DNA from: an uncultured Erysipelotrichaceae bacterium
Lineage (GTDB): Bacteria > Bacillota_I > Bacilli_A > Erysipelotrichales > Erysipelotrichaceae
NCBI GenBank assembly: GCA_964401865.1
Contig: CAYNZZ010000021.1
Span: 1 to 15,609, forward strand
Length of the DNA: 15,609 nucleotides
Direction: 5' to 3'
This document shows, one piece after another, positions 1,766-15,608 of the stretch (positions are counted from its first letter, which is position 1; each line of letters opens with the position of its first letter). The notes beneath the pieces are model-generated. The model did not search any database and had not been told where the DNA came from. It saw nothing but the letters and a program-made list of their open reading frames with translations. Both the position numbers and the translations under genes were made by a program.

Positions 1766-2332
1766 ATGGATTCTAAAAAAATTGAGGTTTTGAATGTTAA
1801 AAAATTAAAGAATGTGAACGTATCGAGACAGTCTATTTATAATTTTATAAAAAGGAATTGTATGGAAAAAGTTGGCCCAGGTATTTATATTTCAAAAGAT
1901 GTGTTGGAAGATGAAGCTTATGTTTTGTCACAGCGTTGTCCAAAAGGAGTTATTTCTCATGATGATGCCTTATATTATTATGGTCTGGTTGATCGAGAAC
2001 CTTTTGTGCATTGTATTACAATTTATAGTGGATATAATCCTTCTGCTTTAACAAACTCAGGTTACAAGGTTTATACTGTAAAAAAGGAGCTTTTGGATCT
2101 AGGAAAGACTACAATCACAAATCAATTTGGTCATGAAATCCCAATGTATGATTTGGAAAGAACAATTTGTGATTTAGTGAGAAGTAGACGTAATTTCGAA
2201 ATTCAGGATTTTAATATGGCGATTAAAACTTATTTACAAAGAAGTGATAAAGATCTGAATTGTTTAATGGTGTATGCAAAAGCATTTCGAATTGAAAAGA
2301 TAATTAGACAATATATGGAGGTTTTATTGTAA
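1766..2332 (+). CDS. abiEi: type IV toxin-antitoxin system antitoxin AbiEi (wHTH)
   Basis: ORF 1685-2332 trimmed to ATG 1766, which has RBS GGAAGGAG 3 nt upstream. The N-terminal wHTH reads NVSRQSIYNFIKRNCMEKVGPGIY. The C-terminal part (...ERTICDLVR...) is typical of AbiEi. Its stop overlaps the start of the next gene (TAATG). Confidence 0.8.
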   Translation: MDSKKIEVLNVKKLKNVNVSRQSIYNFIKRNCMEKVGPGIYISKDVLEDEAYVLSQRCPKGVISHDDALYYYGLVDREPFVHCITIYSGYNPSALTNSGYKVYTVKKELLDLGKTTITNQFGHEIPMYDLERTICDLVRSRRNFEIQDFNMAIKTYLQRSDKDLNCLMVYAKAFRIEKIIRQYMEVLL

Positions 2333-3180
2333 TGTATCTAACTCCAGCACAAATAAAAGGTAGAATTAAAAATGTCGCCAAACAAAATGGATCGGATCCT
2401 ATAACTTTGTTACGTATTTATATGATGGAACGTTTTCTTGAAAGAATAACGTATTCTAAATATAAAGACGATTTCATTGTTAAGGGTGGAATCTTGGTTA
2501 CTTCTATGATTGGTATATCGATGCGATCGACTATAGATATTGATACAACAATACGTAATTTTGATTTAACCAAAGAAGAAACCACAAGGATTGTAAATGA
2601 AATTAAAGATATTTCTCTTGATGATCACATTGAATTTATCTTAAATGATGTATCTGATATCATGGACAATATGGAGTATCCAGGAATAAGAATTCATATG
2701 GATGCAAAATTAGAAAATTTAATAGTGCCAATCAAAATAGATATATCAACAGGTGATGTGATTACACCTAGAGAAATAAGATATGAATATCCGTTGTTGT
2801 TAGAAGACAAATCAATACAACTCTGGTCATATAATTTAGAGACAATACTTGCAGAAAAAATTCAAACAATTCTTTCTAGAGGATTGTTGAATACACGTAT
2901 GCGTGATTTTTATGATGTAACGACTTTATTTGATCGTTATAACGTTCAAATAAACTATAATGATTTATCATTGGCATTTGATAAAACATGTAGAAAAAGA
3001 GAGACACTTTCTTTATTGGAGCATTATGAAGAAATATTATGCTCAATAAGTGAAGATTCAACGTTGCAGAATTTATGGAAGAATTATTGTCGTAAATATA
3101 AATATGCTAGTCATATTGAGTTTTCTACAAATTTAGAAATAATAAAACAATTGATGAGTCAAATGTTAGAAATTGAGTGA
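2332..3180 (+). CDS. abiEii: AbiEii/AbiGii-family nucleotidyltransferase toxin
   Basis: 282 aa. It has the nucleotidyltransferase motif FIVKGGILVTSMIGISMRSTIDIDTT (G-G ... D-x-D). It also has ...NLETILAEKIQTILSRGLLNTRMRDFYD, characteristic of the AbiEii/DUF1814 family. It is coupled to abiEi by a 1-nt overlap. Confidence 0.85.
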   Translation: MYLTPAQIKGRIKNVAKQNGSDPITLLRIYMMERFLERITYSKYKDDFIVKGGILVTSMIGISMRSTIDIDTTIRNFDLTKEETTRIVNEIKDISLDDHIEFILNDVSDIMDNMEYPGIRIHMDAKLENLIVPIKIDISTGDVITPREIRYEYPLLLEDKSIQLWSYNLETILAEKIQTILSRGLLNTRMRDFYDVTTLFDRYNVQINYNDLSLAFDKTCRKRETLSLLEHYEEILCSISEDSTLQNLWKNYCRKYKYASHIEFSTNLEIIKQLMSQMLEIE

Positions 3181-3221
3181 AACAATATCTTAATTGTATG
3201 TATTGTTAGAATGAAATGGTT

Positions 3222-3241
3222 TGTACTCAATATGTACTCAC
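3222..3241. repeat. right 20-bp inverted repeat bracketing the abiE module
   Basis: tgtactcaatatgtactcac, the inverted partner of 1635-1654. A further direct-orientation GAGTACA (aaaatgagtacaaaat) follows at 3251-3266. Confidence 0.6.
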
Positions 3242-3378
3242 AGTGACTCCAAAATGAGTACAAAATATATGTAAAAGATTTGGAAAATAAAATAATACAG
3301 GAAGTAATTGTATAAATAACCATATAATGTATATGTTGTATGGATTTAAAAGTATACAAAATTGAGTTTGAGTAAAAT

Positions 3379-3400
3379 GCCGAGTAATCGGCGTTTTCTT
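3379..3400. terminator. hairpin terminator (GCCGA-gtaa-TCGGC plus T-rich tail), homologous to 4446-4470
   Basis: A 5-bp GC stem with a 4-nt loop, followed on the + strand by gttttctttt. It lies between the abiE operon and the parA remnant, so it could serve either strand. Confidence 0.5.
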
Positions 3401-3418
3401 TTACCCATTTTTCATCAT

Positions 3419-3555
3419 GTTTTTAGAGCCTAAGCAGTAATTGTAATCACTTTGTGGATTAAAGTCAGCAATTGATACTTCGTTTTCAGCATTGATGATC
3501 TTGAAAAACTCTACCTGTTTTGGTTTGTCGCTGTAATTAGTTTGTATTTAGACAT
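3419..3555 (-). pseudogene. parA remnant (P-loop deleted, frameshifted, truncated)
   Basis: ATG at 3553-3555 gives MSKYKLITATNQNR*. Compare the intact-looking start MSKCKVIAVANQKGGVGKTT at 6325. A second frame gives INAENEVSIADFNPQSDYNYCLGSKN, which matches RNGNEVLIVYFDPQGDLTACLGWKN of the 5921-6325 copy. Confidence 0.6.
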
Positions 3556-3647
3556 AAAAAACTCCTTTCCCATAACCACCAGCTAGTAGTGGATATGTAA
3601 AGGAGTTAAAATTATTCTTGCTTAATAGATAAATTGGAATTTATCTA
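3550..3647. repeat. R2 repeat copy 1: parA leader with SD-sequestering hairpin and a perfect 9-4-9 palindrome
   Basis: 3563-3606 is 44/44 identical to 6335-6378 (tcctttcccataaccaccagctagtagtggatatgtaaaggagt). The palindrome tagataaat-tgga-atttatcta at 3626-3647 is identical to 6397-6418. Confidence 0.85.
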
Positions 3648-3667
3648 ACTGTTTTATGAATTAAAAT

Positions 3668-3964
3668 CTACTGATTGTAATGATACAACACTTCTTTTCC
3701 ATGCCTTTCAGCATACTCAATTTCTTTTTTCACAGATGTTCCAATATAACCATCCATATTTACAACATATATTCCATCACTTAAATCTATTTTTCTGTAA
3801 TGAGCATCTGCAAGTTTTAAAAGTTCATCTTCAGTTGGAACAATATTATCTTCACAATAAACACATTGTAATATATTATATCCTTTGCTTATTTCAAGGT
3901 CATAAGCAATTTTTTTCATATCTTCGGCAAATTTCATGCTTCCACAAATTGTATAAGTTTTCAC
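3668..3964 (-). CDS. small nucleoside 2-deoxyribosyltransferase-like (NDT/DUF4406-type Rossmann-like) protein, 98 aa
   Basis: GTG start at 3962-3964 with RBS GAGGTGA. The pattern ICGSMKF ... H-x3-I-x2-SDGIYVVNMDGYIGTSVKKEIEYAERHGKEV matches the N-terminal phosphate-binding loop and the C-terminal G-x-S-x3-E-x2-YA motif of the NDT-like fold. The functional assignment is by motif only. Confidence 0.55.
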   Translation of the reverse strand: MKTYTICGSMKFAEDMKKIAYDLEISKGYNILQCVYCEDNIVPTEDELLKLADAHYRKIDLSDGIYVVNMDGYIGTSVKKEIEYAERHGKEVLYHYNQ

Positions 3965-3977
3965 CCAATCACCTCAT

Positions 3978-4403
3978 CAAATCCCGATTTGTATAAATCT
4001 ACTTATTTAAAATTACATGGATTATAACATTTATTTATAAATCTGAATAGACGGTATAAATTAGTTAAACCATAACGGATTCTATTTGATTCAGTTGTAA
4101 TAATATAATTAATCAATAGAATAGAGTGGAGATTTAATTGAGAACTAGATTGATTTTCATGACATGCAACAATCACACCAAAACCATCTCCCGTGAAAAC
4201 ATTTTTGAAAACATTTTTTGTAGACGCATAGGAAAACGGCCTGCTTTGATGGAATTGTACCTGTAAATAAGGGCCAAAAAGGGCACATTTTCGACCATTT
4301 GGAGAATAATACAATTGAGTTTGAATAAATATAGGCTTTAATGGGGTATAAATTTAAAAATATATGAAACATACCCCTTTAACTTGAAAAAATATAACAC
4401 CTC
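3978..4403. repeat. R1 scaffold repeat, copy B (full length: 5'UTR box, promoter, core, AT-rich tail)
   Basis: Colinear with 6971-7399. Shared blocks are: caaatcccgattt; ataacatttattta..ctgaatag; ggattcta; taatataattaat; tcatgaca.gcaa; the 37-nt identical gtgaaaacatttttgaaaacattttttgtagacgcat; ...gagtttgaataaatataggctttaa.gggg.tataa...cccctttaacttgaaaaaa.ataacacctc. Confidence 0.9.
4021..4047 (-). promoter_or_regulatory. extended -10 promoter inside R1-B driving the 98-aa cargo gene
   Basis: Minus strand: TTCAGA (4042-4047), 15 nt, then TGtTATAAT (-10 at 4021-4026). The same architecture sits at the same place in R1-C. Confidence 0.5.
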
Positions 4404-4445
4404 AATTAGAATGTTCCAGGAACAATCGAATTCGAGTAAAATGAT

Positions 4446-4470
4446 AAAACGCCGAGAAATCGGCGTTTTT
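4446..4470. terminator. bidirectional rho-independent terminator after the 475-aa gene
   Basis: aaaacGCCGAgaaaTCGGCgttttt, with A-run and T-run flanks, 8 nt beyond the stop of the minus-strand CDS ending at 4478. Confidence 0.75.
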
Positions 4471-4477
4471 AACTGGT

Positions 4478-5905
4478 TTATAAGTCGTTTTTATCGTCAA
4501 CTAATATGAATACTGAATATGGAGATTTAGGATTTCCTTCTCTTTTAATAATATTTTTTTCAATAAGTGGGTTTATTACCCTAGATAAAAATGTTGATCT
4601 ACTTTTATAAGGAGTAACACCTTGTAATTCGTTTATTTGTTTTGGACCGCTTTTAAGCGAATGTATTATCACTTCTTCATAATTTTTTAAGTCTGTAATA
4701 TTATCGACGTCTAATTCTTTCACCTCTTCGTTGTACAAAAGATCATAAAGCTTTAAGGATAGAAAACCTGGATATGCAGAGACAACTGGTTGTTTGTTTT
4801 CAGGTGCTTTCTTATAACACTCTACGATTGTCTGAAATCCTGTGCCACCACGTTCCATTAGATTTGCAACATCCAGACATGCTGCTATTATTTTGTTTCT
4901 TCTAATGGAAGGAATGGTGCCAACAGGATATTCTTCGTATGGCTTTGGAAGCAACCATGACCCAGGGGATACAACTTCAATTCTATCATCATAAATATCT
5001 ACATCAATCTGCGTTCCCATGATTGAATAATCACGATGTGCTATTGCATTAACCAGTATTTCTCTTATTGCTTCTTTAGGATAGGAACGTACTTCTTCTC
5101 TTCCTCCATTTGCTGCCTTTTTCCATCCGGATTTTGTGTTTCTTTCAATAAAATTGAGTGTTGAAGAAAAAACATCTAATAAAGGTCCTTTATATCTACC
5201 AGTATCTAAAACAGTGCCCACTTTGTTAATTCCTTTCCAAAGTCTGCAACATATTAAAGAATCATCGTTAGCATAGTCATCTTTAAACATTAGTAGCCCG
5301 GTTGATGAATATCCGTCCTTTGATACAATTTGTTCATTTTGTAATTCTTTTAAGCTCGGGATGCTGTGGTCGGTTCGATAAATGCTACATGTCGAAAGAT
5401 ATTTGCTCCAGTCTGATTCTTTATATAAGATTTCACTTATTGAATTATCGACACCATATTTACGCTTAGATAGTGAGATAATGTCTTCTGGAGTGGCAGG
5501 AGTTGTATTTCCATCGCCTTTAATATAAACAGTTTCGTTAAAATCTCCATCTCTATATCTCACAACAGAGTCGGAAGAATATATTTTTACTGCCAAAACA
5601 AATTTTTCAGCATCGTTATCAACGCTCCTCATAGAATATGATATTTTTGCATGTGGAAAAATGTGTCTATCATTAATAATTGCAATAAGATTTTTGGTCT
5701 TATCAATCTCTTCAATCGATAGTCCAAAAACATCTCGATTATTGGAAACACCAACAAAGATTATTCCACCATCACCATTAGCATATCCAACAATAGTTTT
5801 TGCCCATTTCAATGGGTTATCGGATGATAAAATGCTTTTGAGTTCATAGTGCAAATCTTCTGTTATGACATCTAGATATAGTTCGTTAATTTTCAAATTA
5901 ATCAC
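4478..5905 (-). CDS. COG2865-type ATP-binding regulator-like protein: N-terminal AlbA_2 (Schlafen-core-like) domain, HATPase_c_4-like domain and C-terminal wHTH
   Basis: N-terminus: EDLHYELKS...WAKTIVGYANGDGGIIFVGVSNNRDVFGL (AlbA_2 / divergent AAA signature). Middle: EAIREILVNAIAHRDYSIMGTQIDVDIYDDRIEVVSPG (HATPase_c_4). C-terminus: a wHTH-like segment, IIHSLKSGPKQINELQGV...INPLIEKNIIKREG. The track start is GTG 5905, but GAGGTG (5903-5908) is itself the likely RBS, so TTG 5894-5896 (MKINELYL...) is the more probable start. Confidence 0.8.
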   Translation of the reverse strand: MINLKINELYLDVITEDLHYELKSILSSDNPLKWAKTIVGYANGDGGIIFVGVSNNRDVFGLSIEEIDKTKNLIAIINDRHIFPHAKISYSMRSVDNDAEKFVLAVKIYSSDSVVRYRDGDFNETVYIKGDGNTTPATPEDIISLSKRKYGVDNSISEILYKESDWSKYLSTCSIYRTDHSIPSLKELQNEQIVSKDGYSSTGLLMFKDDYANDDSLICCRLWKGINKVGTVLDTGRYKGPLLDVFSSTLNFIERNTKSGWKKAANGGREEVRSYPKEAIREILVNAIAHRDYSIMGTQIDVDIYDDRIEVVSPGSWLLPKPYEEYPVGTIPSIRRNKIIAACLDVANLMERGGTGFQTIVECYKKAPENKQPVVSAYPGFLSLKLYDLLYNEEVKELDVDNITDLKNYEEVIIHSLKSGPKQINELQGVTPYKSRSTFLSRVINPLIEKNIIKREGNPKSPYSVFILVDDKNDL

Positions 5906-5914
5906 CTCGCAATA

Positions 5915-5943
5915 ATTATATCAACATTTCGCAAACATTTCGA
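5915..5943 (-). promoter_or_regulatory. promoter of the 475-aa gene, overlapped by iterons
   Basis: Minus strand: TATAAT at 5915-5920, with a weak -35 TCGAAA at 5938-5943 (17-nt spacer). Confidence 0.45.
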
Positions 5944-6325
5944 TAACATTTCGCAAACATTTCGAATTACGAATAGTTAAAGTAATGCTTGTTGGATATA
6001 GTCCAAAAACAATACGCATTTCAAAATTTGTCAGTTCAATGTTTGCTGGAATTACATCGGCATCCTCTTCATGTTTTAAGATTAGAGATGCATAGTTGAT
6101 ATCCTTATCGTTGATGTAATCATCAAGCATGGTTGAAACAGTATTATCCAATGAGTCATTGTTCTTCCAACCAAGACATGCAGTAAGATCTCCCTGAGGG
6201 TCAAAGTATACAATCAATACTTCATTGCCGTTTCTTGCTAGGCCAATTGCAACATTCTCGGTTGTAGTGGTCTTGCCAACGCCGCCTTTCTGGTTGGCAA
6301 CTGCAATTACTTTGCATTTGGACAT
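5921..6325 (-). pseudogene. parA: parA-family partition ATPase, truncated after about codon 105
   Basis: MSKCKVIAVANQKGGVGKTTTTENVAIGLARNGNEVLIVYFDPQGDLTACLG... carries the deviant Walker A KGGVGKT of ParA/Soj. Family-like sequence ends near ...VIPANIELTNFEMRIV (about nt 6010). The ORF then runs into the iteron array. Full-length ParA is about 250 aa, and Walker B and later motifs are missing. Confidence 0.75.
5923..5964. repeat. four direct 9-mers AACATTTCG (minus strand CGAAATGTT) at exact 11-bp spacing; iteron/operator or centromere-like array
   Basis: Copies at 5923-5931, 5934-5942, 5945-5953 and 5956-5964, read directly from tcAACATTTCGcaAACATTTCGatAACATTTCGcaAACATTTCGaatt. Confidence 0.85.
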
Positions 6326-6418
6326 AATAAAAAATCCTTTCCCATAACCACCAGCTAGTAGTGGATATGTAAAGGAGTATTTTGTATCTTGTTAGATAGA
6401 TAAATTGGAATTTATCTA
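6320..6418. repeat. R2 repeat copy 2 (parA leader hairpin plus 9-4-9 palindrome)
   Basis: See 3550-3647. There is a 44-nt identical block at 6335-6378 and an identical palindrome at 6397-6418, which lies 6 nt downstream of the GNAT stop codon. Confidence 0.85.
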
Positions 6419-6424
6419 TGTTGC

Positions 6425-6946
6425 CTATAACATAATAATGTATTCTTCTTTATCTGAATTTTCACTCTTTATTATACGATTTAGTTTTCCTCCACAAGCT
6501 ATTATAGTTTTTCTGGAAGGCATATTATCAGCAGAACACACAACTTTCACTTCCGAAAGATTATGCATTTTAAATCTTTTTAAAGCTTCTTTTAGCATTT
6601 CAGTTGCATATCCTTTCATACGTTCTTCCGGAACAACACTATAACCGACATGCCCGCTATCCTTATAAAACTCTGTCATATCATAACGGATATTAATGAT
6701 ACCAACAATTTTATTTTCCTCATTCATCGCAAATAGCGTATCAGATACTCCAAATTTAGGATTAGCAGTACTGAAACTTGCATTATTTATAATTATCTCT
6801 AACCATTCAAGATAAGAATATTTATCTACATCTAATTTGTAACTACCGAAAATTGTTTTTTCTCCATTATTATAAAATTTCATTTTAAATTCTTGAGCAT
6901 CTTTTTCCATCTCAATAGTTGGAAATACTAAATTTACTCTTTTCAT
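6425..6946 (-). CDS. GNAT-family N-acetyltransferase (173 aa)
   Basis: The motif region IVGIINIRYDMTEFYKDSGHVGYSVVPEERMKGYATEMLKEALKRFKMHNLSEVKVVCSADNMPSRKTIIACGGKL is the GNAT acetyl-CoA-binding core. The track ORF (to 7009) was trimmed to ATG 6944-6946, which has AGGAGG 8 nt upstream. The longer version would begin inside the conserved R1 promoter/UTR. Confidence 0.8.
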   Translation of the reverse strand: MKRVNLVFPTIEMEKDAQEFKMKFYNNGEKTIFGSYKLDVDKYSYLEWLEIIINNASFSTANPKFGVSDTLFAMNEENKIVGIINIRYDMTEFYKDSGHVGYSVVPEERMKGYATEMLKEALKRFKMHNLSEVKVVCSADNMPSRKTIIACGGKLNRIIKSENSDKEEYIIML

Positions 6947-6970
6947 TTCTGCTTTTCCTCCTGAACTCAC

Positions 6971-7399
6971 CAAATCCCGATTTTTATAAATCAATTCTTT
7001 TAAAATCACCTAGAGTATAACATTTATTTAAAGCTCTGAATAGTTGAAAAAACCTGATAAATTCAAACTGGATTCTACTTGAAACGAATATGAAAATATA
7101 ATTAATTGGTAGATGAAAGCAAAGATCTATCTAAGAAGGAATCCTTTCTTCATGACACGCAATAATTACATCAAAATCATCATCTGTGAAAACATTTTTG
7201 AAAACATTTTTTGTAGACGCATGAGAAAAAGCCCTGTTTTGGTGGAGTTGTACCTTTAAATAAGTGTCAAAAAGGGCACTTTTTAGACCATTTGGAAAAT
7301 AATACAATCGAGTTTGAATAAAATATAGGCTTTAACGGGGGGTATAATTTTAAAAATATATAAAAAATGCCCCTTTAACTTGAAAAAAAATAACACCTC
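6971..7399. repeat. R1 scaffold repeat, copy C (full length)
   Basis: Colinear with 3978-4403 (see that entry). The tandem 12-mer GAAAACATTTTT is at 7188-7211. Confidence 0.9.
7014..7040 (-). promoter_or_regulatory. extended -10 promoter inside R1-C driving the GNAT cargo gene
   Basis: Minus strand: TTCAGA (7035-7040), 15 nt, then TGtTATACT (-10 at 7014-7019). It is positionally homologous to 4021-4047. Confidence 0.5.
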
Positions 7400-7430
7400 T
7401 TTACTGAAATAAAAGTAAAGAGATTTTTTT
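7397..7430. terminator. bidirectional terminator at the outer edge of R1-C
   Basis: Perfect 9-bp stem CTCTTTACT-gaaataaa-AGTAAAGAG with a T7 run after it and an A-rich run before it. A second small hairpin, GTAGGgtgaCCTAC, follows at 7437-7450. Confidence 0.65.
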
Positions 7431-7634
7431 ATGAAAGTAGGGTGACCTACTTCTTTTAATTTAGTCATTTATTTTGAAAATGACAAAATTAAAGTGAGAA
7501 ACTTAAAAAAATTTTAAAAGTGAAAGAAATAAAATATATAATCATAGATAGTATAGAAGTAATAGAATTTGTGAAGATGGAAAAATGATATAGGTTGAAC
7601 TTCAAATATATAAAATATAAATGGAGGATGTTTC

Positions 7635-7949
7635 ATGCAAAAAGCAATAAAAGAAATCATAGAGTTTAATAGAGAAAGAGAGTGGGATCAATTTCATTCG
7701 CCCGAAAATTTAGCAAAATCTATAGTCATAGAAGCAGGAGAACTCTTGGAATGTTTTCAATGGAATAATAACTATGATAAAGAAAAAGTATGTGAGGAAT
7801 TAGCCGATGTAGTGAATTATTGCGTTGTAATGGCAGATCGTTTACAAGTGGATTTAGAAACAATAGTGTTAGATAAATTAGAGAAAAATCGTCAAAAATA
7901 TCCAGTCGAAAAAGCGAAAGGAAATTCAAAGAAGTATAATGAATTATGA
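7635..7949 (+). CDS. MazG-like all-alpha NTP pyrophosphohydrolase, RS21-C6/DCTPP1/YpjD type (104 aa)
   Basis: RBS GGAGG 7 nt upstream. The sequence REREWDQFHSPENLAKSIVIEAGELLECFQW...EELADVVNYCVVMADRLQVDLETIVLDKLEKNRQKYP contains the E-x2-E and E-x2-D metal-binding motifs and the family-typical F-H-x-P-x-N-L and K-N-x3-YP boxes. Confidence 0.85.
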   Translation: MQKAIKEIIEFNREREWDQFHSPENLAKSIVIEAGELLECFQWNNNYDKEKVCEELADVVNYCVVMADRLQVDLETIVLDKLEKNRQKYPVEKAKGNSKKYNEL

Positions 7950-9811
7950 TTGTATACCAAGAAACAAAAAAGAAATTTTTAACAGATGTAAGACTGGATT
8001 TAATTGAGGATAAAATAGAACAAAAGGTACTCGAACGGTTGCATAAAAAGACTGCTCATAATGAATTTTTATCTTGGATGAATTCGATGCAGTATATGTA
8101 TAAAGTCTTGGAAGCTAAAAGTATTCCAGATGATAGTGTAATTGCAATCGAGTATAGGATACCTAATTCAAATAAGCGGGTGGATTTCATCATTAGTGGT
8201 GAAAATGAATTAGGACAAGAAAGTGCAGTTATTATAGAACTGAAGCAATGGCAAAAATTAGAAAAAGTGGACTCCAAAGAAGCGGTTGTCAAAACTCATT
8301 TACAAGGAAGAATGGTGGAGACAACGCATCCTTCATATCAGGCTTGGTCTTACGTAAGTATGATAGAAGACTATAATGAAGATGTTAGAAAATATAAAAT
8401 CAATTTGCAACCATGTGCTTATTTACACAATTATAGGCTTCAAGAGCATGATGATTTAACAGATTTATGTTATGAATATTATATTGATAAGGCACCAGTA
8501 TTCACCAGAGGAGATACAGATAAATTAGCGAAGTTTATCTCGAAATATGTGAAAAAAGGGAATCCTGATGTGCTTTATCATATTGAACAAGGAAGAATTG
8601 TTCCAAGCAAATCTTTACAAGACAGTTTATCATCCATGTTAAAAGGTAATAGAGAATTTACATTGATTGATGAACAAAAAGTAGTGTTTGAAAGGGCATT
8701 AGAAATTGTAAGAAATCAAAACAAGAAAAAAGTATATATAATTCATGGAGGTCCGGGTACTGGGAAAACGGTTTTAGCAATAAATATGCTTGTTGCGATA
8801 TTGAACATGAATCAAAATGTGATGTATGTAACAAAGAATTCTGCGCCTCGAGAAGTGTACCGGAAAAAATTGACAGAAGGAAAATATCGAAAAGCATATA
8901 TCGATAATTTATTTAAAGGATCAGGAGCTTTTACAGAAGCCATATCAGATGATTTTGATTGTTTAATTGTCGATGAGGCTCATCGGTTAAACGAAAAATC
9001 TGGAATGTTTCAAAATTTAGGGGAAAACCAAGTAAAAGAAATTATAAATGCAGCGAAAACAAGTATATTTTTCGTTGATGATTTTCAAATCGTAACTACT
9101 AAAGATATTGGAAGTACAAATGAAATAAAAAAATGGTGTCTTTTCTTTGATGCTCAAGTATATGAAGATACACTTATATCACAATTTAGATGCAATGGTA
9201 GTGACTCTTATCTTTCATGGATAGATAATGTCTTGGAAATCAATCCAGAAGCAACAGATGACTTTGATTGTGATTATGATATTCGCATTTGCGATACTCC
9301 AGACGAAGTAAGACAATTAATTTTAGAAAAAAATAAAACTAATAATAAATCGAGAATGGTTGCTGGTTATTGTTGGAAATGGATTAAAGAAGGGAAAAAT
9401 GATAGTCATGTTCATGACATACAAATTGGAGATTTTGGAATGTCATGGAATCTTGGGTCTTCTTCAACATGGGCTATCGATTCTGAATCTGTAAATGAAA
9501 TAGGTTGTATTCATACCTGTCAAGGATTAGAGTTTGATTATGTTGGAGTTATTATCGGCGATGATATGCGTTATGACAATGGCATTATTACTGATTTTAT
9601 GAAAAGGGCTAGTACTGATCAATCTATTAAAGGGTTAAAAGGTTTATATAAAAAAGATAAAGATAGAGCTAAAAAAATTGCAGATCAAATTATAAAAAAC
9701 ACATATAGAACATTATTAACAAGAGGGCAAAAAGGATGTTATATCTATTGCGTTGATGGTAGTTTAAAATCGTATTTGAAAGAAAGATTAACAAAATCTA
9801 TTCAAAATTGA
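7946..9811 (+). CDS. DUF2075-family (Schlafen-type) P-loop helicase with an N-terminal PD-(D/E)xK-like nuclease motif (621 aa)
   Basis: The start overlaps the MazG stop (ATGA at 7946-7949). Nuclease-like motif: VDFII (aa 79-83) ... IIELK (aa 96-100). Walker A: GGPGTGKT (aa 268-275, nt 8747-8770). Walker B: CLIVDEAHR. C-terminal boxes: IHTCQGLEFDYVGVIIG and YRTLLTRGQKGCYIY, typical of DUF2075. Confidence 0.85.
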   Translation: MIVYQETKKKFLTDVRLDLIEDKIEQKVLERLHKKTAHNEFLSWMNSMQYMYKVLEAKSIPDDSVIAIEYRIPNSNKRVDFIISGENELGQESAVIIELKQWQKLEKVDSKEAVVKTHLQGRMVETTHPSYQAWSYVSMIEDYNEDVRKYKINLQPCAYLHNYRLQEHDDLTDLCYEYYIDKAPVFTRGDTDKLAKFISKYVKKGNPDVLYHIEQGRIVPSKSLQDSLSSMLKGNREFTLIDEQKVVFERALEIVRNQNKKKVYIIHGGPGTGKTVLAINMLVAILNMNQNVMYVTKNSAPREVYRKKLTEGKYRKAYIDNLFKGSGAFTEAISDDFDCLIVDEAHRLNEKSGMFQNLGENQVKEIINAAKTSIFFVDDFQIVTTKDIGSTNEIKKWCLFFDAQVYEDTLISQFRCNGSDSYLSWIDNVLEINPEATDDFDCDYDIRICDTPDEVRQLILEKNKTNNKSRMVAGYCWKWIKEGKNDSHVHDIQIGDFGMSWNLGSSSTWAIDSESVNEIGCIHTCQGLEFDYVGVIIGDDMRYDNGIITDFMKRASTDQSIKGLKGLYKKDKDRAKKIADQIIKNTYRTLLTRGQKGCYIYCVDGSLKSYLKERLTKSIQN

Positions 9812-10023
9812 AAATAAAATGTAATCTTTTGAAAAATCTTTTAGACAATAGAAAAATGATAAAGATAAGCTTGTATGGAAGATAGATACCATTTTGCTAC
9901 CAACACCAGAAAAATAAGTAATAATGCAGAGAAAATAGCTTTATTATCTAATAAACGCCTAAAAAACGTTAACAAATATGTTCGCTATAATCGTTTCATT
10001 TCGGAGTTCGAATAATTTCGATA

Positions 10024-11943
10024 TTAATCATTATCAAAGAAACGATAATAATCATAGTACATAATATTTTTACTCATGTTTATCATATTGGCAACATTCT
10101 GGTTGATAGCATCGACATATGAATCGCCGACATCTAAACCAGAAATAAAAGGTTCAAAAGTATTGGTACTGGCATAGTATTTTCCTAGATTGCTAACCCA
10201 GCTTCTATCGTTAAATATAGCTAGTTTTAGTGTAGAATTATCCAATATGTCTTTGCCAATAATCAATCTAGAATCATAAGCTATATCAAATAAATTATAA
10301 ATAGTGGGAAGTACGTCGATTTGACTGCCCACATTGTTGATGTGTTTAGTTTCCATTTCACTATTGTATAGAATGAAATTAGAACGGTTTATTTCGATGA
10401 TACCGTCTTTTTGCGTATCAGACATCTCGTTCATTTCATCTAAGCTCAAGGCATATGGATAATGATCGCCAACAAGAGCGATGACAGTATTCTCCAATTG
10501 TCCGTTTTCTTCTAGCTTACTAAGCAGACTTTCTAATGCTCGATCTAGTTCGATTTGAGTAGCAATATATGCTTTTACGCGATAAGAATAGGGTAAGTCT
10601 TTAACCTCTTCCTGATGTTTAATACTCATGGCGTTATCGGTAAAATCATAATTCATATGACCGCTTACAGTTGCGTAATATACTAAAAATTTATCATCAT
10701 TGATATATTCATCAATTGTAGAATCTATCATTTCTTGGTCACTTTTTGGAAAAATGGAGCAGTCAATCTTTTCTTCTAGACCATTTCCGCATGCTTCATA
10801 ATAATCGAAACCTATAGAATTTAAATATATATTCCTCTCTTGAAAAGAGTAATCGTGATTATGATAACTGTAAGCACTATAACCGTTTTCTTTAAATAGT
10901 GTAGCTAGTCCAAATGGATATGAGTTTTTGCCTGTTCGCCACACATATGACAACATACTTAAATCAGGATATAAGCCAGTCAATTCTTGAAATTCTCCGC
11001 CAATTGTCGAAAGTATTACCGGTGAGTAGAAATTGTCAAATACGAATCCATTATTTACTAGCTTATATAACGTCGGAGTAAGCTCTCTATCTACTACAAC
11101 ACCATTAAAACTCTCGGCCATAAACAGAATTAAGTTTTTATCTTTAAAAAAACCAGTATATTCATTTTTGTTGCCAGCTTTATTATTCGCAAAATATTCA
11201 TGCATTGTTTTGATGTCATGGTTTTTCTCGTTTTCAATTAATGAATTAAAATCAATGTCTAATATTTGTTTTTCATATTCAAATTTTTTTATTTCTTCTT
11301 CATCGCCGTCGATATCTTTCTCAGGATTTACTATAACTATTTCTTCTTTAAAGCTGGTTACATTTTTTCTCATCTCAATAATTGTGGATGGAATAACACC
11401 AAAATACTGATGATTCAGAGCGTTGTTTTGAGTGTATAAATATAGAGATTTTAAAGAATTGGTACCATTATTGATTAAGGAATTATAAAAGCACAAATAC
11501 GAGCATATTGCGATTGTGAGAAGTATTAATTTTGCATCGTTAGCGAACTTGATTCTTTTATAAAAAATGATAGCCAAGAAAAAAGGAATAAACATCAAGA
11601 CAATGATTAAGAAATTGGATTTTATAATTGATATGGCTTGGGCAAAAAAACCAAGCGCTTGATCGGCGAATCCAGTTGCAGATAAGGAAAAATAGACACC
11701 GAATGTTTTGTAAAAAATAGTTTCTATACAAAACCAAAGCGAGATTAAAAAAACAATGATTAAAAAGACAAACTTCTGTATTCTAGTTGGCAAAGATTTG
11801 GTTAAGATACTTAACAAAGCAGATAGGAAGATTATATATAATAAATTGAGCAATAAATATATTCCGAAAGTATTACTTACCAGTATTTTGAAAATTAATT
11901 CCAGATAGCTGAAAATAAACAAGTAAAAAATAAACAATCTCAT
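10024..11943 (-). CDS. ltaS: LTA synthase family protein (polytopic N-terminus plus extracellular sulfatase-like domain)
   Basis: 639 aa. The first 190 or so residues form several hydrophobic helices. The sulfatase/LtaS core follows: NLILFMAESFNG...TIGGEFQELTGLYP...YYATVSGHMNY...IALVGDHYPY. Confidence 0.75.
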   Translation of the reverse strand: MRLFIFYLFIFSYLELIFKILVSNTFGIYLLLNLLYIIFLSALLSILTKSLPTRIQKFVFLIIVFLISLWFCIETIFYKTFGVYFSLSATGFADQALGFFAQAISIIKSNFLIIVLMFIPFFLAIIFYKRIKFANDAKLILLTIAICSYLCFYNSLINNGTNSLKSLYLYTQNNALNHQYFGVIPSTIIEMRKNVTSFKEEIVIVNPEKDIDGDEEEIKKFEYEKQILDIDFNSLIENEKNHDIKTMHEYFANNKAGNKNEYTGFFKDKNLILFMAESFNGVVVDRELTPTLYKLVNNGFVFDNFYSPVILSTIGGEFQELTGLYPDLSMLSYVWRTGKNSYPFGLATLFKENGYSAYSYHNHDYSFQERNIYLNSIGFDYYEACGNGLEEKIDCSIFPKSDQEMIDSTIDEYINDDKFLVYYATVSGHMNYDFTDNAMSIKHQEEVKDLPYSYRVKAYIATQIELDRALESLLSKLEENGQLENTVIALVGDHYPYALSLDEMNEMSDTQKDGIIEINRSNFILYNSEMETKHINNVGSQIDVLPTIYNLFDIAYDSRLIIGKDILDNSTLKLAIFNDRSWVSNLGKYYASTNTFEPFISGLDVGDSYVDAINQNVANMINMSKNIMYYDYYRFFDND

Positions 11944-12010
11944 GTCGTAAGTATATTACAAAATATTTATTAAAACATAAAAAAAGATTCCATCGGAATC
12001 ATATTTTTAA

Positions 12011-12087
12011 TGGCGGTCCGGACGGGGATCGAACCCGCGATCTCCTCCGTGACAGGGAGGCATGTTAAACCACTACACCACCGGACC
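12011..12087 (-). tRNA. tRNA-Asp (GTC)
   Basis: The reverse complement ggtccggtggtgtagtggtttaacatgcctccCTGTCACggaggagatcgcgggttcgatccccgtccggaccgcca folds as a cloverleaf. The anticodon loop is CT-GTC-AC and the CCA end is encoded. Confidence 0.9.
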
Positions 12088-12088
12088 A

Positions 12089-12162
12089 TGGAGCAGATGA
12101 AGGGAATCGAACCCTCGTGTCGACCTTGGCAAGGTCGCGTTCTACCATTGAACTACATCTGC
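12089..12162 (-). tRNA. tRNA-Gly (GCC)
   Basis: Reverse complement: gcagatgtagttcaatggtagaacgcgaccTTGCCAAggtcgacacgagggttcgattcccttcatctgctcca. Anticodon stem is cgacc/ggtcg, the loop is TT-GCC-AA, and CCA is encoded. Confidence 0.9.
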
Positions 12163-12170
12163 ATTTATTA

Positions 12171-12261
12171 TGGCGAAGAAGGAGGGATTTGAACCCTCGC
12201 GCCGGTTTCCCGACCTATGCCCTTAGCAGGGGCACCTCTTCGGCCTCTTGAGTACTTCTTC
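12171..12261 (-). tRNA. tRNA-Ser (GCT), long variable arm
   Basis: Reverse complement: gaagaagtactcaagaggccgaagaggtgcccCTGCTAAgggcataggtcgggaaaccggcgcgagggttcaaatccctccttcttcgcca. Anticodon loop is CT-GCT-AA, with a class II variable arm. Confidence 0.85.
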
Positions 12262-12353
12262 ACTCTACGCTTGCCGTTTAGCGCTTTTTAATATTAGCAT
12301 AGTGATTTTATTTTTGCAAGTATTTATGATATTATTTTTTTGAGGTGAGTATT

Positions 12354-12845
12354 ATGGCTATTGCAGAATTTATGAAAGTTAGTGCTGAACAGTTTGAAAA
12401 AGATTGTTTAAAGGTAAATGGTAATTATCAAAAAGAATGGTATGAAGACATCATTTTGCCGAAAAGAGCGACCAAAGGTTCTGCTGGCTATGATTTTCAT
12501 TGTCCCTATGATGTAGTTATCAAGCCTCAGGAAATGGTTAAAATCCCATTAGGTATCAGAGTGAAGATGGAAGAAGGCTATGTGTTAAATTTGTATCCTA
12601 GATCTTCTATGGGTTTCAAATATCAGATGACTTTAGCTAATACGACCGGAATCATTGATAGCGACTATTTTAATGCTGATAATGAAGGACACATTCTTGC
12701 TGCTATCGTTAATAGAGGAAATAAAGATATCATTTTAAACAAAGGAGATCGCTTTGTTCAAGGAATCTTTTTAGCTTACTATCTTGCAAAAGAAGATGAA
12801 GACTTTAAACTTAGAACTGGTGGCTATGGAAGTAGTGGTAAATAG
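12354..12845 (+). CDS. dut: dUTP diphosphatase
   Basis: KGSAGYDF, YPRSSMG, GIIDSDYFNADNEG and the C-terminal RTGGYGSSGK are the five dUTPase motifs. The track ORF was trimmed to ATG 12354, which has GAGGTGA 5 nt upstream. Confidence 0.9.
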   Translation: MAIAEFMKVSAEQFEKDCLKVNGNYQKEWYEDIILPKRATKGSAGYDFHCPYDVVIKPQEMVKIPLGIRVKMEEGYVLNLYPRSSMGFKYQMTLANTTGIIDSDYFNADNEGHILAAIVNRGNKDIILNKGDRFVQGIFLAYYLAKEDEDFKLRTGGYGSSGK

Positions 12846-12850
12846 CTTTT

Positions 12851-12925
12851 GTGTCTATAGCTCAATGGATAGAGTATTTGATTCCGATTCAAAAGATGTA
12901 GGTTCGATTCCTACTAGGCACGCCA
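12851..12925 (+). tRNA. tRNA-Arg (CCG)
   Basis: gtgtctatagctcaatggatagagtatttgaTTCCGATtcaaaagatgtaggttcgattcctactaggcacgcca. Acceptor stem is gtgtcta/taggcac (one G-U pair), the anticodon loop is TT-CCG-AT, and CCA is encoded. Confidence 0.85.
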
Positions 12926-12929
12926 TATT

Positions 12930-13020
12930 GCTGACTTGTGTGAGCGGTTGAAACAACCGTCTTGGAAAGGCGGCGTACGTCAAAAGCGTACCACAGGTTC
13001 GAATCCTGTAGTCAGCGCCA
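12930..13020 (+). tRNA. tRNA-Ser (GGA), long variable arm
   Basis: gctgacttgtgtgagcggttgaaacaaccgtcTTGGAAAggcggcgtacgtcaaaagcgtaccacaggttcgaatcctgtagtcagcgcca. Acceptor stem is gctgact/agtcagc, the anticodon loop is TT-GGA-AA, and the variable arm is gtacg...cgtac. Confidence 0.85.
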
Positions 13021-13025
13021 TTTTT

Positions 13026-13044
13026 AAGCACTTAGGTGCTTTTT
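13026..13044 (+). terminator. terminator after the tRNA pair
   Basis: AAGCAC-ttag-GTGCTT followed by TTTT. Confidence 0.6.
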
Positions 13045-13091
13045 ATTATTTTAGTGGTGTATAATAATTTTATATTATAAGGAGGTTAGTT

Positions 13092-14456
13092 ATGGAAACA
13101 ATTTGGAAAAAGTATGAAGATGAAAAAATTAAGCCAGTAATGGAATTTTCTGAAGGCTATAAGAATTTCTTAGATAACGGAAAAACAGAAAGAGAATGTG
13201 TTACAAAAGCTATCGAACTGGCTGAAGCACATGGATTTAAAGATTTGAATTCGGTTGATAAATTAAAAGCCAATGATAAAGTATATGTAAATAATCGTGG
13301 TAAGAATATTTGCTTATTTGTTATCGGTAAAGAAGGCATTACAAACGGTATGAATGTTTTGGGCGCTCATATAGATTCGCCACGTGTTGATTTAAAGCCA
13401 AATCCTGTGTATGAAAGTGACGGTTTATGTCTTTTGGATACACATTATTACGGTGGCATTAAGAAGTATCAATGGGTTGCTCATCCAATGGCTCTACATG
13501 GTGTAGTATGCAAAAAAGATGGAACAAAGGTAACTGTAAGCATTGGTGATGATGAAAAAGATCCAGTTATCGGTTTTACGGATCTACTTATCCACTTGGC
13601 TCAAGACCAGATGAAAAAGTCTGGTGCCACAGTAGTTGAGGGCGAAGATTTAAATGTATTATGCGGTTCAATTCCTGCTAAAAATGAAGAAAAAGATGCT
13701 GTAAAAACCAATATTTTAAATATTTTAAAATCAAAGTATGATATTGAAGAAAAAGACTTCTTATCAGCCGAACTATCTGTTGTGCCTGCTGGAAAGGCTA
13801 GAGATTACGGTTTAGATTCTAGTATGGTTATGGCATATGGTCACGATGACAGAGTTTGTGCCTATACATCTTTGATGGCTATTTTAGATACAGAAAATCC
13901 AGAAAGAACTTCTTGTTGTATCTTAGTTGATAAAGAAGAAGTTGGCTCACAAGGCAATACTGGTATGCAATCAAGATTTTTTGAAAATGTCGTTGCGGAA
14001 TTAATCGGCAAGATGGAAGAATATAATGATTTAAAACTTCGCCATACATTGACTAATTCTAAGATGTTATCATCAGATGTATCTGCTGGTTATGATCCAA
14101 ATTATGCATCGGTATTTGAAGCGAAGAATGCAGCATTTATCGGTGGTGGTTTGTGCTTCAACAAATATACAGGTTCAAGAGGCAAGAGTGGATGTAATGA
14201 TGCAAATGCCGAATATGTTGCAAAGGTCAGAAAAGTCATGGATCAAAACGATGTCAATTTTCAATTAGCTGAATTAGGAAAAGTTGATCAAGGCGGTGGC
14301 GGAACTATCGCTTATATCTTAGCTAATTTAAATATGGATGTCATTGATGCTGGTGTAGCTGTGTTAAATATGCACGCTTGTTACGAGGTTGCTTCTAAAG
14401 CTGATATTTATGAAGCGTATCGTGGATATGTTGCTTTCTTGAAGGACATGCAGTAA
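13092..14456 (+). CDS. M18-family aminopeptidase (aminopeptidase 1 type)
   Basis: 454 aa with RBS AGGAGG. The boxes GAHIDSPRVDLKPNP, HYYGGIKKYQW, AYGHDDRVC, VDKEEVGS and LNMHA match the conserved metal-ligand blocks of the M18 aspartyl/aminopeptidase family. Confidence 0.8.
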   Translation: METIWKKYEDEKIKPVMEFSEGYKNFLDNGKTERECVTKAIELAEAHGFKDLNSVDKLKANDKVYVNNRGKNICLFVIGKEGITNGMNVLGAHIDSPRVDLKPNPVYESDGLCLLDTHYYGGIKKYQWVAHPMALHGVVCKKDGTKVTVSIGDDEKDPVIGFTDLLIHLAQDQMKKSGATVVEGEDLNVLCGSIPAKNEEKDAVKTNILNILKSKYDIEEKDFLSAELSVVPAGKARDYGLDSSMVMAYGHDDRVCAYTSLMAILDTENPERTSCCILVDKEEVGSQGNTGMQSRFFENVVAELIGKMEEYNDLKLRHTLTNSKMLSSDVSAGYDPNYASVFEAKNAAFIGGGLCFNKYTGSRGKSGCNDANAEYVAKVRKVMDQNDVNFQLAELGKVDQGGGGTIAYILANLNMDVIDAGVAVLNMHACYEVASKADIYEAYRGYVAFLKDMQ

Positions 14457-15352
14457 TGTTTGTTTATTATGATGAAAGTATTTTGACAATAAGTTCAAGC
14501 GTTCGCAAGTATTTTAAGTTAAATACTTATTATCCAAGCGATAAAGAACTAGATGCTTTCCTTGATAAACAGAAACCTAAGAAAATTATTAATATCATAA
14601 TTGATGGTTTAGGAGCTAATGCATTAAATAGAACTTTAGCTCCTACTTCTTTTTTGATTGAGCGTCAATTTAAAAAGCTGCAGACCGTTATGCCAAGTAA
14701 TTATGCGGCAGAAGCAATTATTTCTGGCAAGACATTTAATCTATGCAGTAATGGTGATGTTCAAACAATTAAAATAGTTGACATCAACGATTTAAAGCTT
14801 TTGTATAAAGGTAACAATAATCTTGTATATGTTCAAATTGATGAGTATAAAAAGATGATAATCAAACATAATGTTGATAGTTTTGAAGCAAATAACTGTT
14901 TAAATGAAATAAACGAAAAAATTAAGGAATTGAAAGAAAACATTGATAATGACACTTTGATTATTGTGTACGGTAATTGTGGCTATATCAAAATCAATAG
15001 AAGATGCAACCTTGATGAATCGTATTCCAAATATTTCAATTTGCCACCAGTTTTAGAAAATAGATGTATTTCTTTTTTTGTAAGAGAAGATAAAACTTTG
15101 GAATTTGAAAAATCATTTAAACGTGATTTTGAAAAAGATTATATATTGTTGAATAAAAAACAGGTAATTGATTCCAAAATGTTTGGTTATGATGATAATT
15201 GTCAAACTTTCATTGATATGTTAGGCAGTCATTTAGCGGTCGCAAAAAATGATTTAATTCTTGAAAGTGAGAAAATGTTATATCCATATGATTATTCTTC
15301 TGGCGGAATACTGGACGATGAACTTTATGTACCGATTATTGTGATTAAATGA
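14456..15352 (+). CDS. hypothetical protein, possibly a degenerate alkaline-phosphatase-superfamily (phosphodiesterase-like) protein
   Basis: 298 aa. The start overlaps the aminopeptidase stop (TAATG). KKIINIIIDGLGANALN resembles the N-terminal metal-binding D-G-L/M-G box of type I phosphodiesterase/AP-superfamily proteins. However, the usual downstream D-H-G box is replaced (IIVYGNCGY). The functional call is weak. Confidence 0.35.
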   Translation: MFVYYDESILTISSSVRKYFKLNTYYPSDKELDAFLDKQKPKKIINIIIDGLGANALNRTLAPTSFLIERQFKKLQTVMPSNYAAEAIISGKTFNLCSNGDVQTIKIVDINDLKLLYKGNNNLVYVQIDEYKKMIIKHNVDSFEANNCLNEINEKIKELKENIDNDTLIIVYGNCGYIKINRRCNLDESYSKYFNLPPVLENRCISFFVREDKTLEFEKSFKRDFEKDYILLNKKQVIDSKMFGYDDNCQTFIDMLGSHLAVAKNDLILESEKMLYPYDYSSGGILDDELYVPIIVIK

Positions 15353-15371
15353 TGTAAATAACAAGCAAAAC

Positions 15372-15398
15372 AAAAAGTCCTTTATTAAGGACTTTTTT
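15372..15398. terminator. bidirectional terminator between convergent genes
   Basis: aaaaAGTCCTTtattAAGGACTttttt: a 7-bp stem and 4-nt loop with an A-run and a T-run on either side. Confidence 0.75.
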
Positions 15399-15452
15399 AG
15401 ATGCTTAAACTGTATAAATATAGTTCCGTAAAGAAGAATGAACAACAACTTT

Positions 15453-15608
15453 TTATTTTATAACCTCATATTTTAATTGAATATATGAATTGTCTAGTTG
15501 TTTACACTCGATCAACTTCAATGCTTTTAATTTACCAAGTTCTTTAGAAGAAACAATTGATTCTCCATCTATAAGAGTTGATGTATCTTTGCCTCCTACC
15601 AATAACGG
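15453..15608 (-). CDS. 3' end of an unidentified protein-coding gene (start off-window)
   Basis: The minus-strand frame is open from the window edge to TAA (15453-15455): PLLVGGKDTSTLIDGESIVSSKELGKLKALKLIECKQLDNSYIQLKYEVIK*. It is followed by the shared terminator. No family was recognised. Confidence 0.45.
   Translation of the reverse strand, partial: PLLVGGKDTSTLIDGESIVSSKELGKLKALKLIECKQLDNSYIQLKYEVIK

Follow-up and report, generated by a model that had tools for sequence, protein, structure and literature searches.

Several anti-phage proteins join a nuclease to a DUF2075 helicase, and Nhi, Nhi-like, and AbiO are already known as defence proteins of this class; PF09848, the Pfam family for DUF2075 (now named 'Schlafen group 3 helicase'), is already in use as a defence marker. 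Nhi (Staphylococcus epidermidis SERP2475; Bari et al. 2022) was reported to act on phage replication intermediates, and its over-expression was discussed as potentially harmful to host DNA. Nhi-like (Bacillus cereus FSL H8-0482, 611 amino acids [aa]; Millman et al. 2022) is a tested anti-phage gene, and phages escape it by inactivating their own DNA methylase. Both the avoidance of self-damage and the sensing carried out by Nhi, Nhi-like, and AbiO are poorly understood. A further enzyme, SauUSI, cuts DNA containing 5-methylcytosine (5mC) or 5-hydroxymethylcytosine (5hmC); at least 60 SauUSI-like genes were noted in 2011 to be linked to a pyrophosphohydrolase of unknown function, and SauUSI restriction persists after deletion of the linked NUDIX gene. 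Here we analyse a 15,609-nt stretch of DNA from an uncultured Erysipelotrichaceae bacterium (contig CAYNZZ010000021.1, positions 1 to 15,609; hereafter the window), in which a gene for a 104-aa MazG-like protein overlaps a gene for a 621-aa nuclease-helicase. Sequence comparisons indicate that this pair probably represents a two-gene variant, as yet without a name, of the known Nhi-type anti-phage helicases. The parts of the operon are as follows.

7623-7627, plus strand: GGAGG ribosome-binding site, 7 nt 5' of the MazG ATG
7635-7949, plus strand: mazG-like open reading frame (ORF), 104 aa, from the ORF listing and raw sequence
7946-7949, plus strand: ATGA start/stop overlap shared by both ORFs (translational coupling)
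7946-9811, plus strand: nuclease-helicase ORF, 621 aa, of Nhi/Nhi-like architecture
7946-8665, plus strand: N-terminal domain with predicted PD-(D/E)xK core, aa 1-240
8726-9757, plus strand: DUF2075 / Schlafen group III helicase domain, superfamily 1B (SF1B), aa 261-604
8747-8770, plus strand: Walker A motif GGPGTGKT, within the helicase domain
8972-8983, plus strand: DEAH (Walker B), within the helicase domain

The ORF pair with its shared ATGA and the GGAGG preceding it, both named in an original prediction made from the letters of the window, were found again in the ORF listing and the sequence. The assignment of the small protein to the RS21-C6/DCTPP1 type also held. In a Pfam profile search it matched PF12643 (MazG-like) with an E value of 2.6e-21 and 76.1 bits relative to a cut-off of 27, and the closest solved proteins by sequence were mouse RS21-C6 and human DCTPP1 (E 9e-21 over 96 residues). 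Residues E33, E36, E55, and D58, which make up the metal-ligand motifs E33-x-x-E36 (in EAGELLE) and E55-x-x-D58 (in EELAD), aligned with E63, E66, E95, and D98 of mouse RS21-C6, and W17 and W43 aligned with its W47 and W73. When 52 MazG proteins encoded beside homologues of the helicase (partner MazGs) were compared, the four metal-ligand residues plus E39 were invariant or at least 90% conserved; F11, E36, E55, D58, K81, and P90 were invariant; and the two Trp residues were conserved. By sequence, the small protein is a DCTPP1/RS21-C6-type all-alpha nucleoside triphosphate (NTP) pyrophosphohydrolase, and since the catalytic residues were kept across the partners, selection acts on the partner MazG as an enzyme, one which would hydrolyse dCTP or 5-modified dCTP to dCMP and pyrophosphate. 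The likeness to the mammalian proteins lies in the 96-residue alignment, the four metal ligands, and Trp47/Trp73; the window protein differs in being a minimal 104-aa bacterial form, operon-linked to a helicase. NCBIfam profiles gave nothing specific for the pair.

The 621-aa protein matched PF09848 over the whole profile (positions 1-354 of 354; residues 261-604, E 1.8e-104, 350.3 bits), and a search of 1.8 billion cluster representatives gave 4397 relatives, of which many were full length and 30-55% identical. When 59 of them were aligned, the invariant residues were E69, R78, D80, E98, K100, W102, H128, and P129 in the N-terminal domain and G271, G273, K274, D343, and E344 in the motor. AlphaFold2 (AF2) models of the full protein and of residues 1-240 were confident, with predicted local distance difference test scores of 92.6 and 94.3, respectively. 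In these models E69, D80, and E98-x-K100 lie on three consecutive strands that follow a helix bearing the near-invariant E40, a topology which corresponds to the usual PD-(D/E)xK arrangement. Foldseek comparison of the whole model with the Protein Data Bank (PDB) ranked the Dna2 nuclease-helicase first, followed by SLFN11, RecD2, RecD, Dda, Upf1, and IGHMBP2, with E values of 1e-10 to 1e-7 for Dna2, SLFN11, RecD2, Dda, and Upf1; SLFN14 was likewise among the best matches. These fold matches therefore identify the motor as an SF1B helicase. The isolated N-terminal domain gave no significant PDB match by Foldseek, its weak top matches being the restriction-fold nucleases EcoO109I, Shedu, EndoMS, SfsA, and Exo5, and for this reason we regard the N-terminal nuclease as a well-supported prediction and not as a demonstrated fold match. 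Together, the profile match, the invariant motif residues, and the fold matches agree with the earlier reading of the large protein as a PD-(D/E)xK motif joined to a DUF2075 helicase.

Many homologues are longer, about 790-820 aa, and end in a LexA/CI-type S24 peptidase domain (P0123, P0124, P0125, P0129, P0131, P0135, and P0179; L044-L049, L052, L060-L065, and L094). In these proteins, which make up about a quarter of the homologues, the S24 domain has an intact Ala-Gly site, the GxSM serine, and the lysine of a Ser/Lys dyad, which hints at RecA-triggered self-cleavage. The MazG partner was present beside most of the S24-fused homologues.

The relation of the pair to named systems was examined with PADLOC 2.0.0, which has no model for it. 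MazG had no match at all, and the helicase matches were weak and partial, so that no system named in PADLOC 2.0 corresponds to the pair, as the original prediction had supposed. The Nhi (PDLC02372) and AbiO models gave 48.5 and 51.7 bits, respectively, over the central region of the helicase only (for Nhi, E 1.3e-13, residues 184-395 against profile positions 131-311 of 470), and the candidate model PDC-S41 gave 65.4 bits in three pieces, the best of which covered residues 410-606, without a full-length match. Nhi-like has the same layout of N-terminal PD-(D/E)xK-type nuclease and DUF2075 helicase, and hhalign comparison of the family profile with its first 399 aa gave a probability of 98.9% (E 2.7e-17, 330 aligned columns, 18% identity) over a region that takes in the nuclease and helicase motif II and extends past the latter. 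This remote full-length homology bears out the Nhi-type layout named in the original prediction; BLASTP was marginal (22% identity over 171 aa, E 1e-4), and the protein falls outside close family membership. Nhi and AbiO also share the nuclease plus DUF2075 SF1 helicase layout, and the structural relatives reported for Nhi (Dda, Upf1, and DNA2) are among the fold matches of the window protein too. The differences lie in the partner: Nhi and AbiO are single-gene systems for which no pyrophosphatase partner has been described, and Nhi-like was cloned and active as a single gene, whereas the window family usually comes with MazG. Because the homology was found at the profile level only and the PADLOC matches were partial, we place the window protein, by sequence, in the same class as Nhi and Nhi-like and outside the described families. 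The eukaryotic Schlafen group III proteins (SLFN5/11/13/14) have the PF09848 helicase domain in common with it; their N-terminal nuclease is the Schlafen core tRNA endonuclease, in contrast to the predicted PD-(D/E)xK domain here, and we know of no pyrophosphatase partner for them. RefSeq labels the genes only as 'nucleotide pyrophosphohydrolase' and 'DUF2075 domain-containing protein', and a full-text search found no literature linking DUF2075 with MazG, MazG with Schlafen, or MazG with an anti-phage helicase. Fontibacillus panacisegetis DSM 28129, which has the pair (L051), occurs in three other tables of the Millman supplement; it was not found in the supplement file that holds the table of Nhi-like homologues.

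A genome scan for helicase homologues yielded 80 loci with 41-80% identity, from Firmicutes, Bacteroidota, several proteobacterial classes, Bdellovibrionota, Verrucomicrobiota, Planctomycetota, Chloroflexota, Saccharibacteria, Parcubacteria, and methanogenic archaea; the distribution was patchy and cross-domain, with 45-59% identity between phyla. MazG lay directly beside the helicase, always on the same strand, in 51 of the 80 loci (about 51 of the 71 with usable flanks), spanning Firmicutes, Bacteroidota, Proteobacteria, Verrucomicrobiota, Chloroflexota, and the candidate phyla radiation. In about 38 of these loci it preceded the helicase and in about 13 it followed; the two genes overlapped or were no more than 30 nt apart in about 41, and 11 had the identical 4-bp overlap. 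The adjacency, which had been predicted to reach beyond close relatives, is conserved across phyla and in both gene orders; the claim that the helicase is 'obligatorily coupled' to MazG gave way to one of frequent coupling. On a haloarchaeal plasmid, a 'nucleotide pyrophosphohydrolase' gene lies 5 nt upstream of a DUF2075 gene. A hidden Markov model (HMM) built from the 52 partner MazGs matched nothing in the 29 partnerless loci, neither a hidden MazG nor one elsewhere in the flanks, so the absences are either real or due to contig ends, which cut about 9 of the 29. All-against-all clustering of the neighbouring ORFs of the 80 loci revealed no other family conserved around the pair. In a neighbour-joining tree the MazG-positive loci were scattered over the whole helicase family, gene order was clade-specific, and MazG losses were clade-wise, as in a Bacillaceae clade. 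As the partner has been lost in whole clades, the sequence data indicate that MazG is a frequent but accessory, not an obligatory, component. The distances of MazG and helicase were correlated, weakly though significantly (Mantel r 0.30, 0 of 2000 permutations), a sign of co-divergence on which we do not lean. Apparent MazG-helicase 'fusions' in L069, L076, and L088 were rejected as artefacts of over-extended ORF starts.

Some viral contigs carried a DUF2075 protein with a different nuclease domain, GIY-YIG, and in some of these proteins a C-terminal S24 peptidase was also present. Two examples of such helicases adjoining a MazG of the same type are given here.

L142, 5306-7549: GIY-YIG-DUF2075 helicase, viral contig
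L102, 5312-7078: GIY-YIG-DUF2075 helicase, viral contig

Because MazG stands beside these variants as well, it goes with the helicase and not with the nuclease type. In a few loci other genes were present at the position of MazG or next to it: L027 and L029 have an unannotated 165-aa gene, with overlaps, between MazG and helicase, and L075 has an HEPN_AbiU2 gene inserted there. On the Hymenobacter canadensis plasmid (L195, 6001-9987) two tandem DUF2075 nuclease-helicase genes adjoin a restriction-modification pair and a DUF4747 gene, and an unannotated 207-aa gene occupies the usual MazG position.

A sister DUF2075 family of 709-713 aa, homologous to the window protein over its full length including the E...D...E-x-K region (hhalign 99.3%), has in place of MazG a gene for a NudG-like NUDIX hydrolase, with which it shares a 4-bp overlap. 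This family was found in a Saccharibacteria genome and in abundant gut Firmicutes, is listed in 386 contig-index blocks, and in the gut Firmicutes is preceded by an HTH_26 gene of the same helix-turn-helix (HTH) type as that found before MazG. Its NUDIX protein is 36% identical to the one that accompanies a PLD-DEAD-DUF3427 enzyme, which PADLOC identifies as a Type IV methyl-directed restriction enzyme (5e-214) and whose NUDIX neighbour is the PADLOC candidate PDC-S07. For these NUDIX proteins the best or second-best NCBIfam match was NudG, a pyrimidine (d)NTP diphosphatase, below the cut-off. In several unrelated genomes the SauUSI-like plus NUDIX module adjoins or interleaves with MazG-DUF2075; the order is NUDIX-TypeIV-MazG-DUF2075 in L037 and MazG-TypeIV-NUDIX-...-DUF2075 in L017. 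The loci concerned are listed below.

L062, 2854-5387: sister DUF2075-NUDIX locus
L206-L213, 4759-7525: sister DUF2075-NUDIX loci
L009, 4289-7553: SauUSI-like enzyme and NUDIX near the pair
L012: SauUSI-like enzyme and NUDIX near the pair
L017, 1162-4698: SauUSI-like enzyme and NUDIX near the pair
L019, 8396-11765: SauUSI-like enzyme and NUDIX near the pair
L037, 2502-5667: SauUSI-like enzyme and NUDIX near the pair

The SauUSI-type and MazG-DUF2075 modules appear to follow a common logic, a nuclease-helicase with a small conserved NTP pyrophosphohydrolase, and the NUDIX family of the former is the one coupled to the sister DUF2075 family. SauUSI has features of its own, a PLD nuclease, an SF2 helicase, and a DUF3427 5mC/5hmC reader, and its partner is a NUDIX protein, not MazG; PLD, SF2 helicase, and DUF3427 domains were absent from the window protein by Pfam and PADLOC mREase_IV profiles and present among the neighbours of its relatives. 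Judged by sequence, two unrelated folds, each similar to a dCTP-type pyrophosphatase, are found in one and the same coupled position next to DUF2075 nuclease-helicases, and one of the two also serves a known 5mC-dependent restriction enzyme. These observations argue that the partner matters through its chemistry rather than through any one binding surface, with a cytosine nucleotide as substrate.

The pair also recurs beside defence genes and on mobile DNA, in bacteria and archaea, in line with the earlier expectation of a setting among defence genes and mobile elements. Relatives 96% identical to the window protein lie within elements carrying a Tn916-type integrase, Xis, and Rep_trans, and their neighbours include an AIPR protein (PADLOC AbiU), QatABCD, AbiH, or an AAA_21 protein. 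In 87% relatives the downstream neighbour is fixed and the upstream side variable, the options there being SbcCD plus HIRAN, an OLD-type ATPase, or the PLD-DEAD-DUF3427 enzyme with NUDIX. Over the 80 loci the nearest neighbours included Fic (8 of 252), AbiE, RhuM, methyltransferases, HNH proteins, and integrases; this Pfam survey of 252 neighbours is a descriptive count made without a control set, from which no enrichment is claimed. A Fic/DOC-domain gene lay near the pair in six loci (L020, L021, L027, L029, L031, and L078), four of which had the order Fic-...-MazG-...-DUF2075.

From the gene structure, the protein families, the conserved catalytic residues, and the conserved linkage on mobile, defence-associated DNA, we infer an anti-phage function for the pair, a nuclease activity for the large protein, a substrate for MazG, and a rationale that links the two, as follows. 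The operon would be a horizontally mobile defence module with the 621-aa protein as its effector, an Nhi-class enzyme. On the model of Nhi and Nhi-like, its SF1B motor would carry the N-terminal PD-(D/E)xK nuclease along foreign DNA. MazG, the co-translated protein of 104 aa, would be a catalytically active accessory enzyme of the DCTPP1 type, converting dCTP-type nucleotides, most likely 5-methyl- or 5-hydroxymethyl-dCTP, to the monophosphate. Such modified cytosine nucleotides might come from degraded modified phage DNA or from phage synthesis, and MazG would keep them out of replication; the host's modification-sensitive nuclease-helicase would thereby be kept from attacking the host chromosome, and the phage would be denied its protective base. 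We give this reading, an Nhi-class effector with an accessory (modified) dCTP pyrophosphatase that spares replication from modified cytosine, a probability of about one half. The dispensability of the NUDIX gene for SauUSI restriction fits an accessory, losable MazG partner. A tie to DNA modification is suggested, indirectly, by the SauUSI-like plus NUDIX modules near the pair and by the phages that escape Nhi-like through methylase loss. Several observations count against the reading. About 20 informative loci, including the whole Bacillaceae clade, have no pyrophosphatase partner of any kind, and 71 of 80 viral loci with this MazG type have no DUF2075 neighbour, so that the enzyme is not specific to the system. 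No modified-base reader domain was recognisable in the window protein by Pfam or in the AF2 model, and its nuclease domain in isolation had no significant fold match. The homology to Nhi-like is remote, at 18% identity, and modification dependence may not transfer over that distance; many of the 252 neighbours are housekeeping genes. DCTPP1 and NudG both prefer 5-modified dCTP, and the proposed substrate leans on these preferences.

The alternative that survives best makes MazG offensive: depletion of dCTP, or destruction of a modified deoxynucleotide such as hydroxymethyl-dCTP, would stall phage DNA synthesis, and the nuclease-helicase would then attack the stalled intermediates, the two proteins acting in series. 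The invariant catalytic residues and the DCTPP1 type of the enzyme fit this scheme, the swap to a NudG-like NUDIX in the sister family fits it equally well, dNTP-depleting defence enzymes (dCTP deaminase and dGTPase) are established in the literature, and Nhi was reported to act on phage replication intermediates. Against it, the 104-aa enzyme is constitutively co-translated with no visible sensor or regulatory domain, the partner has been lost in many clades, and the analogous NUDIX is dispensable for SauUSI restriction; we think this alternative unlikely. The comparative data favour a cytosine-nucleotide pyrophosphatase role; they do not separate attack on phage nucleotides from protection of the host.

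A role outside phage defence, as an SOS-linked module for DNA repair or nucleotide sanitation or in a mobile-element function such as plasmid or integrative and conjugative element (ICE) competition, seems to us improbable. The LexA-like S24 autoprotease with its intact Ala-Gly site and Ser/Lys dyad in about a quarter of the homologues fits such a role, as do the house-cleaning nature of DCTPP1-type enzymes, the presence of the pair on plasmids and ICEs, and the many housekeeping genes around it. Its patchy, cross-domain distribution with 45-59% identity between phyla, the swapping of PD-(D/E)xK for GIY-YIG nuclease domains, the repeated adjacency to Abi, restriction-modification, Qat, Type IV, and Fic genes, and the homology to proven defence proteins all argue the other way. 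More doubtful still is MazG as a bound regulatory subunit or antitoxin silencing the nuclease-helicase until infection, its hydrolase activity being secondary, since the usual upstream, translationally coupled position of the small gene, the toxin-antitoxin-like layout of HTH, small gene, and large gene, and the potential harm discussed for Nhi over-expression are set against metal-ligand residues that are invariant or at least 90% conserved across 52 divergent partners, gene order flipped in whole clades, many partnerless homologues, and an unrelated NUDIX fold in the sister family, which argues for chemistry and not for a specific protein surface.

New here are the conserved partnership with MazG, the NUDIX counterpart of this enzyme, and the SauUSI-type link, for which no description was found in the searchable literature or in PADLOC 2.0. 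A conserved, catalytically intact partner of the dCTPase type suggests that cytosine nucleotides take part in the mechanism. Extending the preferred reading, we tentatively propose, as a possibility which we hold with less than even confidence, that DUF2075/Schlafen-type and SauUSI-type enzymes obey one design rule, in which a modification-sensitive nuclease-helicase is joined by a small (modified) dCTP-specific pyrophosphatase, either MazG/DCTPP1-type or NudG-like NUDIX, that bars recycled or phage-made modified cytosine from DNA. If these proposals are correct, MazG-DUF2075 would be a widespread unnamed two-gene immune system of bacteria and archaea, defence catalogues would gain a two-gene (or HTH-containing three-gene) system, and the SauUSI-NUDIX linkage noted in 2011 and never resolved would have its first functional rationale. 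The bacterial systems would also be tied to human DCTPP1 and Schlafens, which act on nucleotide pools and in replication stress or against viruses, and the rule might be echoed by these two families in animals. If MazG proved irrelevant, the finding would shrink to another subfamily of Nhi-type helicases.

The DNA upstream of the operon contains the following features.

7397-7422 and 7435-7452, plus strand: two terminator-like hairpins, which end the upstream repeat element and would insulate the operon
7464-7484, no strand assigned: inverted repeat GTCATTT-n7-AAATGAC, seen in the raw sequence
7513-7542, plus strand: candidate sigma-70-like promoter, the best match, TTTAAA-18-TATAAT (10 of 12 positions)
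7571-7634, plus strand: conserved leader, common to the window and its 96%-identical relatives
7571-7593, plus strand: remnant of the 3' end of a lost HTH_26 regulator gene, from alignment to the 96%-identical relatives

Three terminator-like sites were found upstream of the operon relative to 0.6 expected; promoter-like sites in this region were no more numerous than in shuffled sequences. In the 96%-identical relatives (L095-L101, about 9424-9648) an HTH_26 (VanU-like) gene of 69-74 aa lies directly 5' of MazG, so that the nearest relatives have a three-gene unit, HTH-MazG-helicase. The statement that the unit holds no other genes is correct for the window, where there are two, and does not extend to these relatives. 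Because only the last codons of the HTH_26 gene, about 23 nt, remain in the window in addition to the conserved leader, the operon there has probably lost its regulator. The inverted repeat described in the original prediction is present in the sequence; as a conserved operator it was rejected because the DNA around it is specific to the window and not common to the relatives.

The island that holds the operon contains AbiEi/AbiEii (PADLOC 2.6e-63 and 8.4e-98) and an SLFN_AlbA_2/HATPase_c_4 protein, corresponding to the AbiE and COG2865-like proteins named earlier, and in addition a GNAT gene, a ParA fragment, and a truncated RhuM-like gene. All contigs retrieved with the ltaS product belonged to the window strain and had its gene arrangement, and no empty site was found. 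Other features of the island are as follows.

611-1177, minus strand: RhuM-like gene, 188 aa; PADLOC candidates PDC-S23 and PDC-S05
5921-6325, minus strand: ParA-type ATPase gene, 134 aa, matching only the N-terminal half of its profile
1405-1578, 3973-4403, and 6966-7399: repeated non-coding element, three copies
3557-3606 and 6329-6378: second repeat pair, first piece, 98% identity
3616-3647 and 6387-6418: second repeat pair, second piece, 91% identity

Of the 252 positions in the Pfam RhuM profile, the RhuM-like gene covers only 1-70, and its match to the PADLOC PDC-S23 models, which have about 330 positions, takes in roughly their first half. As both it and the ParA-type gene look truncated, the island appears to be partly decayed. 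The repeated element has a core of about 175 nt in all three copies, extends to about 430 nt in two, and had no Rfam match; it separates cargo blocks of one or two genes, its last copy ending about 235 nt before MazG. A 34-nt string from its core was present in 13 contigs from gut metagenomes, where it often occurred twice at a spacing of 1.5-1.9 kb, and short-read contigs of the window strain break at the element, a behaviour which suggests a cassette-boundary or recombination element. One block between repeat elements consists of a 98-aa ORF (3668-3964, minus strand) that had no Pfam, PADLOC, or NCBIfam match and is, by eye, a candidate for a small nucleoside 2-deoxyribosyltransferase-like protein. 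The second repeat pair (3557-3647 and 6329-6418) lies just downstream of this gene and of another minus-strand gene at 6425-7009, respectively, and contains the palindrome ATAGATAAATTGGAATTTATCTA.

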